A stretch of 32,000 bases of DNA from Moritella sp. JT01 (GCF_001574435.1 NZ_LOCN01000001.1:297801-329800), one strand, 5' to 3'; counted from the stretch's first letter, positions 5,012 to 9,684 are shown. The notes: a model not told the origin generated them from the letters alone. Translations and numbers: made by a program.

Positions 5012-5097
5012 GCCCGAGTGGTGAAATCGGTAGACACAAGGGATTTAAAATCCCTCGCTTAATAGGCGTGCCGGTTCAATTCCGGCCTCGGGCACCA
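5012..5097 (+). tRNA. tRNA-Leu (anticodon TAA)
   Basis: GCCCGAG...CTCGGGC ACCA; anticodon loop ATTTAAAAT; GGTTCAATTCC. Confidence 0.96.
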
Positions 5098-5148
5098 ATT
5101 TCTTTTTGTTAGATATAACGTTAAACATATACTTTAAATAAAATATTT

Positions 5149-5222
5149 GGCGGGTTGGCAGAGTGGCTATGCAGCGGATTGCAAATCCGTGGACCTCGAT
5201 TCGACTTCGGGACCCGCCTCCA
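5149..5222 (+). tRNA. tRNA-Cys (anticodon GCA)
   Basis: GGCGGGT...ACCCGCC TCCA; loop TTGCAAA. Confidence 0.96.
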
Positions 5223-5289
5223 TGATTTAAGCTTGAAAGAGCAAGTTTGTTGGTTCTGCACTGGAACGAATAAATTATAAAAATTCAGT

Positions 5290-5375
5290 GCCCGAGTGGT
5301 GAAATCGGTAGACACAAGGGATTTAAAATCCCTCGCTTAATAGGCGTGCCGGTTCAATTCCGGCCTCGGGCACCA
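5290..5375 (+). tRNA. tRNA-Leu (anticodon TAA)
   Basis: identical in sequence to the copy at 5012. Confidence 0.96.
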
Positions 5376-5463
5376 ATTAATACAAATACTAGAAATAGTA
5401 TATCTCGCTAAGATGTAAAATTAGCACCCTGTATTAGCAACGAAAGTTGTGATGGCAGGATAT

Positions 5464-5537
5464 GGCGGGTTGGCAGAGTGGCTATGCAGCGGATTGCAAA
5501 TCCGTGGACCTCGATTCGACTTCGGGACCCGCCTCCA
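5464..5537 (+). tRNA. tRNA-Cys (anticodon GCA)
   Basis: identical in sequence to the copy at 5149. Confidence 0.96.
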
Positions 5538-5604
5538 TGATTTAAGCTTGAAAGAGCAAGTTTATTGGTTCTGCACTGGAACCAATAAATTATAAAAATT
5601 CAGT

Positions 5605-5690
5605 GCCCGAGTGGTGAAATCGGTAGACACAAGGGATTTAAAATCCCTCGCTTAATAGGCGTGCCGGTTCAATTCCGGCCTCGGGCACCA
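5605..5690 (+). tRNA. tRNA-Leu (anticodon TAA)
   Basis: identical in sequence to the copy at 5012. Confidence 0.96.
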
Positions 5691-5700
5691 ACTTTTATAA

Positions 5701-5727
5701 AAAACCAGCTTATAGCTGGTTTTTTTA
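5701..5727 (+). terminator. terminator of Leu/Cys tRNA array
   Basis: AAACCAGCT-TAT-AGCTGGTTTTTTT. Confidence 0.85.
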
Positions 5728-6019
5728 TGCCTGAAATTTACCTATGCACTAAAACCAGCGATTTCCTTTGTTCGGAATTATCTGATTTAATCAAAGTCGG
5801 CTTGTTCGGATAACGTTTTGTATTGTAGTTTTTGGTGTTAGTCGATTCCACATTGAACTGTAAACAATTGTCGATTGTAAAATCGTTGTGATAATAAGCA
5901 TATTGAATTTATTTTCAACCATCTGATATATATATAAAGGTTTTCATTGACTCATATTTAGAATGCGGTAAAGTGAGCGCATATCCGGTTAGGCAGCTAG
6001 CTTAATTGTTTATCACTCA

Positions 6020-6105
6020 GCCCGAGTGGTGAAATCGGTAGACACAAGGGATTTAAAATCCCTCGCTTAATAGGCGTGCCGGTTCAATTCCGGCCTCGGG
6101 CACCA
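6020..6105 (+). tRNA. tRNA-Leu (anticodon TAA), solitary fourth copy
   Basis: same sequence as the other Leu copies; separated from the array by a terminator and about 330 bp. Confidence 0.96.
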
Positions 6106-6112
6106 AATTTAG

Positions 6113-6144
6113 AAAAAGGCTTACCATTAGGTAAGCCTTTTTTG
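6113..6144 (+). terminator. terminator after solitary tRNA-Leu
   Basis: AAGGCTTACC-ATTA-GGTAAGCCTTTTTTT. Confidence 0.85.
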
Positions 6145-6167: not shown

Positions 6168-6196
6168 TTGTTTCTTCTATTCCAAGTGCTTATGAT
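6168..6196 (+). promoter_or_regulatory. putative sigma70 promoter of the vemP-like/secDF operon (TTGTTT - 17 - TATGAT)
   Basis: -35 TTGTTT 6168-6173, 17-nt spacer, -10 TATGAT 6191-6196; about 25-nt leader before ATG 6229. Confidence 0.55.
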
Positions 6197-6219: not shown

Positions 6220-6702
6220 TTGTCTTCTATGCTACTTCGATTGATGCGCTATTTTACTCTGTTATTTGTTATGGTTATGGGCTTTAATGCTCAGGCTGAC
6301 ACATACACAGAATTAGCGATACCATCAACACCGTTATTAGCGCCAGCCTCTTTACTTGTAAATGCGAATGAAGCGGGTACTGCTTACCAAGATGTCGGTG
6401 AATCAGAACAACCCCCTGTCTCATCGCCAACTCATGCTTATGAATTTGCTTTAACGGAAACCTCCCGTTATACCAGTGCTGGTCGTTTACGGTTAAATAA
6501 TCCCGAACCGGACTATCAGATAGAGATTGAATTATCGATTCCACCATCAGCGTCGTTGGTGATCGGCTATGCGGTAAATATTAATTTCGAGCAATACTGG
6601 TTAACCGGCACATCTTTTTCTAAGTCGCGAATATCGGGCTGGAAAGACAGTAATTTATTATATTCTCACCGCCAATACCCCGCTGTTATTACCTCTGTTT
6701 AG
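6220..6702 (+). CDS. small secreted VemP-like export-monitoring / translational arrest peptide (putative)
   Basis: N-terminal signal peptide (LLRLMRYFTLLFVMVMGFNAQA|D), C-terminal RISGWKDSNLLYSHRQYPAVITSV, directly upstream of secD. Track start is TTG 6220; ATG 6229 is a likely alternative. Confidence 0.72.
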   Translation: MSSMLLRLMRYFTLLFVMVMGFNAQADTYTELAIPSTPLLAPASLLVNANEAGTAYQDVGESEQPPVSSPTHAYEFALTETSRYTSAGRLRLNNPEPDYQIEIELSIPPSASLVIGYAVNINFEQYWLTGTSFSKSRISGWKDSNLLYSHRQYPAVITSV

Positions 6703-6853
6703 ACAAAAATGTAAGTATTAACCATACTGCTTTTTTGTTGTATTTATCTGCTTAACTATCCTAGTTTCACTAGACATAATTACTAGAAATAGTACTGAAC
6801 ATAACGCGTTCATAACGCTCTTGTCAGGCTCTATAAGCAAGTTAATCACCAAT

Positions 6854-6923
6854 ATGCCTGCGTTTTATGTAAGAACGTTATATATCTATTTTCTATATAT
6901 ACCTTTTATATAGAAACGGGCAT
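6854..6923 (+). promoter_or_regulatory. structured secD leader: hairpin TTTCTATATA/TATATAGAAA (6890-6916) with outer ATGCCTG/CGGGCAT pairing masking the secD RBS region
   Basis: complementarity read directly; ends 3 nt before ATG 6926. Confidence 0.5.
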
Positions 6924-6925
6924 TG

Positions 6926-8764
6926 ATGGACAGCGATCAAATGACAAAAAAATTAAATTCAAAAGCCCAACGTAAACGATTAAACCATTATGCAGGTTGG
7001 AAGTATGTGGTTCTAATCTGCACTGTCTTAATTATGCTATTAAGTGCGATCCCTACTTTATATGGTGAAAATCCGGCACTGCAAATTAACCATAAACAAG
7101 GTCAACAACCTGCTATTCACGTGCTTAAGCAGACACTAGAAGAAAGTAATATTGCGGTAACACGTATCGATCAAGACATGGATAAAACCACGATAGTGTT
7201 AACAGACTCTAGCACTCAAACACGTGCTAAGGCGATACTCGAAGCCATATTGCCTGCAAATGATGACATTACTTTAGCACTCGTTTCTGCCGCGCCGTCT
7301 TGGTTACAGAGTATGGGACTAAAGCCGATAAAATTAGGTTTGGATCTACGTGGCGGTGTGCAGTTCTTGCTAGATGTTGATATGGAACCGGTATTCAATA
7401 TCAGAGCACAGCAATTGGTAGATAACTTACGGGCTGATTTTCGTGAGGAAGGGTTTCGAGGTGTTCGAATTAGCATTAATCATAATAATAGTTTGCAACT
7501 GAACTTGCCCACCAATGAAGAAAAAGTCACATTATTGAAATTAATGCACAACAGCTATCCACAATGGAAAGTAACTCAGAGTTCGGGGTTATTGGTTGAG
7601 GTGAGTATTCCACAAGCTGAAAAGACCGACATCATTAACCTAACTGTGCAGCAGAATTTACAAACAATGCGCAGTCGTATCGCAGAGTTAGGTATTACTG
7701 AAGCGATGGTTCAGCGCCAAGGTGAGCATCGTATCCGTATTGAATTACCCGGTGTGCAAGATCCTGCGACGGCAAAAAACGTTATCGGCGCGACAGCCAG
7801 TCTTGCCTTTCATGAGCTTAAAAACACAAGCAATGGAAGTATGCTCGTGAATAATAATCAGGGGATGCCAATACGTATTGATCGTGATGCCATATTAGGT
7901 GGTGAACACATTATTGATGCGCGAGCCAGTGTTGGTGAAATGGGGGCAGCAGAAGTTAATATTACGTTAGATAACGCCGGTGGTAAAAAAATGTCGAGCT
8001 TTACCAAGCATAATATTGGCAAGCCGATGGCAACGCTCTATAGCGAGTACAGTCGTAACGCGGATGGTTCTACCAAAAAGACTAGCAACATTATTAGTGT
8101 CGCCACCATTCAAGCCCAGTTAGGCAGTCAATTTAGAATCACGGGTGCAGGTAGTATGGTTGATGCAAAAGAGCTTGCATTGTTGCTACGTGCGGGGTCG
8201 TTAACTGCACCAGTGACGATTGTTGAAGAAAGAACGATAGGTCCTTCACTGGGGGCCGAGAATATTCAAAATGGCTTCTCAGCATTAGCGCTCGGGCTAG
8301 GTTTAACCTTGGTATTTATGGCGCTGTGGTATCGTCGCCTAGGCTGGGTTGCGAATGTCGCACTCATTGCCAATATTATTATTTTATTTGGTTTATTGGC
8401 TCTGATCCCTGGTGCTGTCTTAACGCTACCGGGTATTGCAGGGTTAGTACTTACTGTTGGTATGGCCGTCGATACAAATGTACTGGTGTTTGAGCGTATT
8501 CGAGACAAATTACGAGAAGGACGTAGTTTTGCACAAGCTATTGATCGTGGTTTTGATAGTGCATTCGCTACGATTGTTGATGCCAATATCACCACCTTAA
8601 TTATTGCGGTTGTACTGTATTCGGTCGGTCGGGGACCTGTGCAAGGATTCGCTTTAACGCTGGGCTTAGGTATCTTAACCAGTATGTTTACAGGCATCTT
8701 GGTATCACGTGCATTAATTAATAAATTATGGGGTCGTGATACTCGTCATGACTTGAAGGTATAG
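6926..8764 (+). CDS. secD: protein translocase subunit SecD (paralog-2 type)
   Basis: MKLGLDLRGGVQFL-like (IKLGLDLRGGVQFLLDVDME), VVELPG-like, VGMAVDTNVLVFERIRD motifs; E. coli SecD-like length. Confidence 0.92.
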   Translation: MDSDQMTKKLNSKAQRKRLNHYAGWKYVVLICTVLIMLLSAIPTLYGENPALQINHKQGQQPAIHVLKQTLEESNIAVTRIDQDMDKTTIVLTDSSTQTRAKAILEAILPANDDITLALVSAAPSWLQSMGLKPIKLGLDLRGGVQFLLDVDMEPVFNIRAQQLVDNLRADFREEGFRGVRISINHNNSLQLNLPTNEEKVTLLKLMHNSYPQWKVTQSSGLLVEVSIPQAEKTDIINLTVQQNLQTMRSRIAELGITEAMVQRQGEHRIRIELPGVQDPATAKNVIGATASLAFHELKNTSNGSMLVNNNQGMPIRIDRDAILGGEHIIDARASVGEMGAAEVNITLDNAGGKKMSSFTKHNIGKPMATLYSEYSRNADGSTKKTSNIISVATIQAQLGSQFRITGAGSMVDAKELALLLRAGSLTAPVTIVEERTIGPSLGAENIQNGFSALALGLGLTLVFMALWYRRLGWVANVALIANIIILFGLLALIPGAVLTLPGIAGLVLTVGMAVDTNVLVFERIRDKLREGRSFAQAIDRGFDSAFATIVDANITTLIIAVVLYSVGRGPVQGFALTLGLGILTSMFTGILVSRALINKLWGRDTRHDLKV

Positions 8765-9684
8765 TGAATATGAACAAAAACAATAGAAATAAATACAGTA
8801 CATTACGTTATATCAGTAGTGCTATGTCAGTGGTTTTTATGCTTATCGCAATTGCATTTATTAGTATTAATGGACTGAACTGGGGCTTGGACTTCACTGG
8901 TGGCGTTATCACCGAAGTGCAGCTTGATCCAAGCATTACAATGAGTGAGATCTCACCATTATTACAGTCAGTACTTAATCAAAATGTCAGTGTGATTGAA
9001 GGGGGAGAACTTGGCCGCTGGATCTTACGTTATGCTGAGCCTGCTGCAGGCATGAGTATTCCGGATATTACGCAGGTACTCGCGCCATTGGCAACCAATA
9101 TTCAAGTATTAAACACCAGTATTGTTGGCTCTCAAATCGGTCAAGAGTTAGCGGAGCAAGGTGGTCTTGCACTCTTAGTGTCTATGCTGTGTATCATGGC
9201 GTATTTAAGCTATCGTTTTGAATGGCGTTTGGCGTCGGGTGCATTATTTGCCTTAATACACGATGTGTTATTTGTACTCGGGGTATTTGCTGCGCTGCAA
9301 CTTGAGTTTAACCTGACGGTATTTGCGGCGATATTGGCGATTATTGGGTATTCATTGAATGATTCTATTATTATTGGGGATCGTATCCGCGAGTTACTTA
9401 TTCTTAAGCCAACCTTAGCGATAGCTGATGTGAATAATGAAGCGATTGCGGCAACGTTCTCTCGCACTATGGTGACATCGGGTACCACCTTAATGACAGT
9501 TTCGGCATTATGGTTACTTGGCGGAGGACCTTTGAACGGATTCTCTACTGCGATGTTCATTGGTTTAATTGTCGGCACATGGTCATCGATTGCTGTTGCG
9601 ACGACTTTACCTGAATGTTGGGGCTTAAATGCCAAACATTATCAGGTTGTTGAGCGAGAGGATCGATTTAGCGAAGGCTTGTAA
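8764..9684 (+). CDS. secF: protein translocase subunit SecF
   Basis: GLDFTGGVITEVQ, GYSLNDSIIIGDRIRE motifs; overlaps secD stop by 1 nt; GTG start (ATG 8770 possible). Confidence 0.92.
   Translation: MNMNKNNRNKYSTLRYISSAMSVVFMLIAIAFISINGLNWGLDFTGGVITEVQLDPSITMSEISPLLQSVLNQNVSVIEGGELGRWILRYAEPAAGMSIPDITQVLAPLATNIQVLNTSIVGSQIGQELAEQGGLALLVSMLCIMAYLSYRFEWRLASGALFALIHDVLFVLGVFAALQLEFNLTVFAAILAIIGYSLNDSIIIGDRIRELLILKPTLAIADVNNEAIAATFSRTMVTSGTTLMTVSALWLLGGGPLNGFSTAMFIGLIVGTWSSIAVATTLPECWGLNAKHYQVVEREDRFSEGL

Follow-up and report, generated by a model that had tools for sequence, protein, structure and literature searches.

A vemP Gene with a Divergent C-Terminal Segment Upstream of secD–secF in Moritella sp. 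JT01

Introduction

Does an open reading frame that precedes secD–secF in Moritella sp. JT01, and whose C-terminus departs from that of Vibrio alginolyticus VemP in the segment nearest the ribosomal active center, encode an arrest peptide of the VemP family, and how would a stall in such a peptide be communicated to secDF? VemP is among the few well-studied force-sensing arrest peptides. In V. alginolyticus the SecDF that it regulates is a second, Na+-independent paralogue that exists beside the constitutive SecDF1; a stem-loop sequesters the ribosome-binding site of secD and is dissolved by the stalled ribosome; and almost every residue of a six-residue stretch near the active center matters for arrest. 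A first-pass annotation of a 32,000-nucleotide stretch of Moritella sp. JT01 DNA (hereafter the window) had proposed that the open reading frame is a divergent, VemP-like arrest peptide. Here we examine that proposal, the divergent segment, and the RNA that separates the gene from secD. Features of the locus are collected in Table 1.

Results

The Open Reading Frame and Its Surroundings

The reading frame is as the first-pass annotation had described it: read from a TTG at 6220 it runs on the plus strand to 6702 and comprises 160 codons, and the residues that had been cited near its C-terminus, R137-I-S-G-W141-K-D-S-N-L-L-Y148 followed by SHRQYPAVITSV, are exact. The true start is likely to be an ATG at 6229 (MLLRLMRYF...), where 11 Moritella loci have either ATG or GTG; the RefSeq model, of 152 aa, begins at MRYF, position 6244. 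Thirty homologues with E values of 1e-30 or lower share the frame and a C-terminus that is conserved up to Pro154, and the reading frame is therefore far beyond what chance would produce. Its best database match (100% identity) carries the name "hypothetical protein AKG98_276 [Moritella sp. JT01]", and scans of the ORF against Pfam and NCBIfam assigned it to no family. Neither collection contains a VemP model; this explains the gene's continued annotation as a hypothetical protein, and it means that the empty scans do not count against membership of the VemP family. Outside the ribosome we expect most of the protein to be disordered.

A signal peptide, MLLRLMRYFTLLFVMVMGFNAQA, cleaved before D, is discernible in the sequence and is conserved in homologues. 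A SignalP-6.0 call covering residues 1–18 of the 152-aa form ("SS 1-18") appears in a published table (PMC10987492), and the signal peptide with AQA cleavage that had been proposed is borne out both by the sequence and by this entry.

On the 5′ side of vemP lie pgsA and a tRNA-Leu/tRNA-Cys array whose final tRNA-Leu occupies 6020–6105. The terminator that had been reported before the ORF is real, and it is the terminator of this tRNA-Leu; it insulates vemP from the tRNA array. The tRNA-Leu gene and its terminator are found directly 5′ of vemP in nine of 11 Moritella loci, with different genes farther upstream. As to the claim that the ORF has a promoter of its own, a candidate TTGTTT–17 nt–TATGAT element is conserved upstream of the ORF in the alignment of the 11 loci, but a generic promoter scan listed none for it. 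The generic terminator scan called neither the tRNA-Leu terminator nor the leader hairpin H1 described below, and folding and conservation were used in place of generic scanning for terminators and promoters alike. We also note that the window contains tandem tRNA arrays at 117–984 and 5012–6105, which comprise three tRNA-Ser(UGA) genes and a Leu(UAA)-Cys(GCA)-Leu-Cys-Leu series, and a separate fourth tRNA-Leu(UAA).

Table 1. Positions, in window coordinates, of features at the vemP–secD–secF locus
Feature	Position	Strand	Description or basis
Intrinsic terminator of tRNA-Leu	6112–6143	+	Hairpin, then T-run; −21.7 kcal/mol, z = −4.97
Candidate sigma-70 promoter	6168–6196	+	−35 TTGTTT 6168–6173, 17-nt spacer, −10 TATGAT 6191–6196
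vemP coding sequence	6229–6702	+	157 aa from ATG, stop codon included
Sec signal peptide	6229–6297	+	Cut after AQA; sequence reading, SignalP-6.0 in published table
Arrest-release element equivalents	6409–6468	+	HMMER alignment to VemP PDB chain
Arrest module	6628–6681	+	R137-ISGWKDSNLLY-SHRQY-P154; core, then Moritella-specific S-H-R-x-[Y/F]-P
Codon of Pro154	6679–6681	+	Last codon of the arrest module
Tail	6682–6702	+	AVITSV + stop; six poorly conserved codons
Hairpin H1	6702–6739	+	Starts at last base of stop codon; A-run pairs with U-run, terminator-like look
Long-range helix H2	6749–6839	+	UGCUUA 6749–6754 pairs with UAAGCA 6834–6839
Helix H3	6849–6929	+	CC..AUGCCU 6849–6859 pairs with GGGCAU..GG 6918–6929
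secD	6941–8764	+	Pfam; NF009545; conserved start ATG 6941 (MTKK...)
secF	8764–9684	+	Same strand as vemP and secD

Assignment to the VemP Family

When the protein was compared with all PDB chains using phmmer, the single match was the VemP nascent chain (5nwy; residues 34–149, E = 5e-4), and a profile built from Moritella sequences matched the same chain with E = 1.5e-4. The alignment with VemP that the first-pass annotation had named as a check extends over ~115 residues, beyond the motif. A profile search also connects the Moritella sequences with Vibrio-type representatives. In the VemP alignment the arrest core appears as SRISGWKDSNLLY versus HRISGWKETNAMY, and the core pattern RxxxWKxxNxxY is represented here by R137-ISG-W141-K-DS-N145-LL-Y148. 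The Vibrio motif that had been cited for the comparison was essentially right: the deposited chain carries HRISGWKETNAMYV, and arrest occurs at Gln156 (PMC5449182).

Likeness to V. alginolyticus VemP (Ishii et al. 2015; PDB 5NWY, PMC5449182) includes a signal peptide and a length of about 157–159 aa, a position upstream of secD–secF with a SecD of the same type (NF009545), and a core of the form R-I-S-G-W-K-[E/D]-[T/S]-N-x-x-Y, with arrest assumed at Trp+13. The proposed gene order, signal peptide, motif, and family assignment all hold. The likeness extends, moreover, to three elements that control translocation-coupled release of arrest in V. alginolyticus VemP (PMC7793623, PMC11470409), the equivalents of which lie at the same spacing. 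The hydrophilic-x-Pro motif Q65-x-P67 is matched by Q64-P-P66; the short hydrophobic segment L78–F81 aligns with F76-A-L-T79, which is weaker here, being hydrophobic at three of four positions; and Arg-85 aligns with R83 (6466–6468). The distance from this arginine to the tryptophan of the core is 58 residues in both the Moritella and the V. alginolyticus protein. Among the differences, the lower-helix residue Trp124 of V. alginolyticus VemP aligns with Phe123 here, and the tail beyond the stall measures six residues in Moritella as compared to three.

Fujiwara et al. (2024; Nat Commun 15:2711, PMC10987492) had entered the same gene as VemP in their supplementary data. The entry (GCF_001574435.1, NZ_LOCN01000001.1 304044-304502, AKG98_RS01355, WP_067040195.1) gives a protein of identical sequence the class "VemP / uDF_VemP_Enterobacterales"; it places WKDSN at residue 133 and assumes arrest at residue 146, which is Pro154 in the 160-codon numbering and corresponds to Trp+13. 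Moritella sp. PE36 and M. dasanensis are included in the same table; Moritella goes unmentioned in the main texts of the VemP papers, and the classification is found in the supplementary table only. We conclude that the ORF is vemP and that, as a member of a known family, it had been catalogued for Moritella sp. JT01 before. Because Fujiwara et al. had already classed it as VemP, its identification is not a discovery, and the window adds no new kind of system. According to our scans and the tables of Fujiwara et al., the vemP–secDF arrangement also occurs in Moritella, Photobacterium, Enterovibrio, Shewanella, and Psychromonas (compare PMC11470409).

The Divergent Segment Nearest the Active Center

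The first-pass annotation had drawn attention to the segment SHRQYP as a departure from Vibrio. To place it in the context of the family, we carried out a full-library profile search and used the invariant Trp as the anchor point for 71 sequences representing clusters at 50% identity. Trp, Lys(+1), and Asn(+4) are invariant among these representatives, and Arg(−4) is present in 68 and Tyr(+7) in 62 of the 71; positions +8 to +13, meanwhile, have entropies of 2.6–3.8 bits. The VALNSQ type of V. alginolyticus constitutes one cluster, a minority, and other family members end in tails such as TLYQHR, RFSQTR, SHQHAR, and PQQYP. The divergence of the Moritella segment is thus real but not special to Moritella: because +8 to +13 are hypervariable throughout the family, the tail is no peculiarity of this genus, and the VALNSQ residues do not define the family.

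Residues V151-A-L153-N154-S-Q156, which belong to the C-terminal helix of V. alginolyticus VemP, lie nearest the peptidyl-transferase center, and silence it, are absent here, their place being taken by S-H-R-Q-Y-P; in particular, N154 and Q156 are not conserved. L153, N154, and Q156 matter in V. alginolyticus, where they are near the peptidyl-transferase center (PMC5449182), and the corresponding Moritella residues are R151, Q152, and P154. Moritella VemP is of some value as a natural variant that retains the mid-tunnel motif and the release elements on the export side but has all six residues next to the active center replaced, and variant tails of this kind bear on the question of what share of arrest is set by the mid-tunnel module and what share by residues near the active center.

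Within the Moritella type the replaced segment is well conserved. In 19 aligned Moritella-type sequences Arg(+10) and Pro(+13) are invariant and position +12 is almost always Tyr or Phe; conservation ends abruptly after Pro154 and is followed by six variable residues and the stop codon. The number six holds for every Moritella-type sequence inspected, though the letters vary. The mature N-terminal parts of the same 19 sequences are full of substitutions and indels. The C-terminal segment is, by this alignment, under strong constraint. A boundary at Pro154 is to be expected if residues beyond the stall never act in the tunnel, and we infer that the stall falls at Tyr153 or Pro154.

The codons for H150–P154 (6667–6681) are CAC CGC CAA TAC CCC, of which four of five are minor codons ending in C, in a region of 41% GC. 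CCC accounts for three of the 50 Pro codons in neighboring genes and is locally the rarest, and the Pro codon of the segment is mostly CCC. This codon use could reflect a constraint at the level of RNA or slow decoding at the stall site.

Linkage to secD and secF

The statement that the ORF lies directly upstream of secD–secF holds in that the genes are adjacent and on the same strand, but vemP does not abut secD: the two are separated by a gap of 238 nt, measured up to the conserved secD ATG at 6941. Linkage of vemP, secD, and secF is kept in 11 Moritella loci despite their differing upstream neighbors. The SecD protein scores 989 bits against the NCBIfam equivalog NF009545 (cut-off, 728 bits) and shares 59% identity with the SecD encoded after a classic, VALNSQF-type vemP of Vibrio sinaloensis, which matches the same model. 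By these comparisons SecD here is of the same type as the SecD that follows vemP in Vibrio.

Two in-frame ATGs are available to secD, at 6926 (MDSDQM...) and 6941 (MTKK...), and RefSeq places the start at the first in JT01 and at the second in PE36. In two loci (L002 and L029) the first ATG is out of frame or runs into a stop, leaving a 5-codon mini-ORF that ends at the secD start. The conserved start is therefore 6941. The Shine-Dalgarno sequence of secD is weak, and the 23 nt before the ATG at 6941 (GGCAUUGAUGGACAGCNAUCAA) are conserved as RNA. Immediately beyond secF, the stretch from 9957 to 31575 holds a flrA-like (FleQ) sigma-54 activator gene, a flrB/flrC-like two-component pair, and fliF, fliG, fliI, fliK, flhA, and flhF-like genes, a polar-flagellum cluster as in Vibrio.

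A Structured Leader between vemP and secD

The vemP–secD spacer ranges from 168 to 290 nt across the 11 Moritella loci and from 116 to 316 nt in other members of the VemP family. RNAalifold and pair counts applied to the Moritella loci revealed three conserved helices, H1, H2, and H3. H1 (−9.2 kcal/mol, z = −2.4) is conserved together with its U-run in all 11 loci, and in one of them (L026) the 5′ arm has gained a G and the 3′ arm the C that pairs with it. H2 encloses a region of variable length, and two of its pairs are changed on both sides among the 11 loci. H3 encloses a variable AU-rich hairpin (local fold, −22.7 kcal/mol, z = −2.1); its 3′ arm covers Shine-Dalgarno-like GGG/GGA and the upstream secD ATG, and its pair 251:353 covaries (AU 4, UA 3, UG 2). 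Taking the conserved structure as a whole, 94% of cells are paired in the 11 loci and four pairs change on both sides. It outdoes shuffled controls in three measures out of five, and every slid control, a comparison that is inflated by the derivation of the structure from the same alignment. Nothing in the leader reaches threshold in Rfam, and the ATGs of candidate small relay ORFs in the leader are not conserved among the Moritella loci.

Leaders with related features are known. In Alteromonas naphthalenivorans, a marine gammaproteobacterium, the family uDF_RQH_Enterobacterales likewise supplies a leader ORF with a signal peptide upstream of secDF2 and a stem-loop that masks the secDF2 Shine-Dalgarno sequence (PMC10987492); its arrest motif, however, is R-G-P-P without the WKxxN core, and it is a different family.

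Two further pairings were considered and set aside. In the window the codons for P154–V156 are complementary to GGACAGCG before secD, and CGCUGU (6682–6687) pairs with ACAGCG (6930–6935) in the minimum-energy fold, but this pairing between the stall site and the secD initiation region does not differ significantly from shuffles (p of about 0.07) and is absent from the more distant Moritella loci. Pairing of the H1 U-run with the A-rich secD start was rejected because the inserted G/C of L026 has no counterpart at the secD start.

Coupling of the Stall to secDF

We think it probable that the gene product is a Sec-exported "monitoring substrate" of the VemP family, whose pausing would be tuned by its own export and would in turn induce secDF. 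Sensing of export and induction of SecDF are supported by homology, and the homology is deep. By analogy, the ribosome would pause at about codon 153/154 (6676–6681) with the C-terminal ~25 residues in the exit tunnel. A translocon working with SecDF and PpiD would pull on the exported N-terminal part, upon which the pause would be released and VemP completed; if export were weak, the pause would persist and expression of secD–secF would rise. H3 would serve, as the stem does in the Vibrio model, to occlude the ribosome-binding region of secD.

We infer the coupling step from the Vibrio paradigm, and the geometry of the leader bears on it. The 5′ arm of H3 is ~170 nt downstream of the stall site (ribosome at 6679). 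A stalled ribosome therefore cannot melt H3 directly, and coupling would have to proceed through a relay in the structured leader or by some other route. When the footprint of the stalled ribosome was forced to be unpaired, the secD ribosome-binding site and its AUG were predicted to be just as accessible as before at all 11 loci, and we keep direct unmasking of the ribosome-binding site as a candidate mechanism only.

Alternative Explanations

The tail allows a different account of the arrest chemistry, in which the VemP mid-tunnel module would be joined to a SecM/RAPP-like module at the ribosome's active center, so that formation of a bond to proline would be blocked (as at RAG/P in SecM and RAP/P in ApdA/ApdP) and not, as in Vibrio, prevented by a helix that jams U2585/U2506. 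The Arg-x-x-Pro arrangement of the Moritella tail recalls SecM; SecM and ApdA/ApdP (PMC10951233, PMC10951299) are also Sec-monitoring leader peptides, with an invariant Arg three residues before an invariant Pro at which conservation ends, although they have no overall homology to the Moritella protein and carry A-G, A-P, or G-P in place of its Q-Y. The spacing is that of RAG/P and RAP/P, in which neither Arg at −2 nor the A-site Pro is dispensable (PMC10951233), and [R/Q]-x-Y-P recurs at the same offset elsewhere in the family (SQRLYP in P0047, PQQYP in P0089 and P0098). The invariance of Arg and Pro up to the point at which conservation stops, and the predominance of the locally rarest Pro codon, fit this account as well. 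The middle residues are bulky, however (Q/L/V/E, then Y/F), as opposed to the A/G/P/S of all tested RAPP-like motifs, and the RAPP-like mechanism depends on precise backbone geometry (PMC10951233). R-Q-Y-P, moreover, fails the published RAPP-like and SecM definitions ([R/Q/H]-[A/G]-P-P, R-A-G-P, R-A-P-G, and R-G-S-P), the Arg...Pro spacing alone being in agreement; the published table takes Pro as the P-site residue, albeit by a fixed offset; and a Pro within +8 to +14 is present in only 21 of the 71 representatives and hence is no requirement of the family. We therefore regard the SecM-like chemistry as possible but doubtful, and a diverged arrest chemistry by way of Pro154, as the first-pass annotation had suggested, as hypothetical. 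A far more deflationary view is that the ORF is a degenerate relative of VemP that no longer stalls, its product being a small secreted protein or the ORF itself a passive leader, and that expression of secDF is constitutive. The loss of the critical V. alginolyticus residues near the active center and the length of the intergenic region would accord with it, but purifying selection on the whole C-terminal module is strong and extends to the lineage-specific residues, the release elements are kept at their spacing, and the link with secDF is obligate, and we judge degeneration to be very improbable.

As to the means by which a stall is transmitted, coupling could be transcriptional instead of translational, with H1 acting as a terminator, or Rho acting on the leader, to end most transcripts, and with the position of the ribosome modulating read-through. 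The arrangement resembles tnaC–tnaA in that an untranslated spacer lies between an arrest peptide and its target gene. In E. coli that spacer is about 220 nt, and TnaC stalls at the stop codon and blocks Rho. Conservation of H1 with its U-run in all 11 loci, the length of the leader, the strictly conserved distance of six codons from Pro to stop, and the lack of any predicted direct effect of the stalled ribosome on the ribosome-binding site all lend themselves to such a scheme. But H1 begins 23 nt past the first base of the Pro154 codon, outside the footprint of the stalled ribosome; a ribosome that reaches the stop codon would break up H1 and thereby give the wrong regulatory sign; and H1 is weak, with its U-run paired to an A-run and the terminator scan silent. 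Nor is there evidence of a Rho loading site in the Moritella leader, which has none of the C-over-G bias typical of such sites, and on this ground Rho-dependent attenuation of the tna kind was rejected. The Vibrio system, for its part, acts at the level of translation (PMC5449182). We consider transcriptional coupling distinctly unlikely. A composite is also conceivable, in which a modular hybrid traps Pro-tRNA at the A site and this stall is sent to secDF by way of H1, H2, and H3 over ~170–240 nt and not by direct melting of a stem; this combination too we think unlikely. The VemP-type monitor of export thus remains the reading that we favor.

VemP-Like Open Reading Frames at Other Loci

Finally, we note that a motif scan of genomes also revealed VemP-like ORFs that are not upstream of secDF; the survey of Fujiwara et al. 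(2024) covered only regions upstream of secA, secDF, and yidC (PMC10987492). In Glaciecola sp. KUL10 (L023:3701-4195) and a Shewanella metagenome-assembled genome (L021:3686-4102), such ORFs lie directly upstream of Peptidase_S41 genes. Their N-terminus holds a hydrophobic segment and their C-terminus the motif [H/F]R[I/L]SGWKDSN, and the Glaciecola copy lacks the Tyr at +7.

In Serratia sp. Ag1 (L019:3650-4093) and on an S. quinivorans-type contig (L031:3001-3447), a VemP-like ORF of ~147 aa with the signal peptide MRWLFAMLIALFCW... lies between a GntR (exuR-like) gene and a gene for a DedA/VTT-domain (yqjA-like) protein, and 3′ of the latter are a gene for a SecD-TM1-domain protein (mzrA-like) and then yqjCDEK-like genes. 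The C-terminus of these Serratia/Chania ORFs reads SR[I/L]GGWKESN[I/M]LYRG[S/T]LTYHS, and the ORF is conserved in 28 sequences, all annotated as hypothetical. A literature search found no paper that links yqjA with arrest peptides. The Serratia/Chania ORF may represent a VemP-type monitor whose target is a new one.
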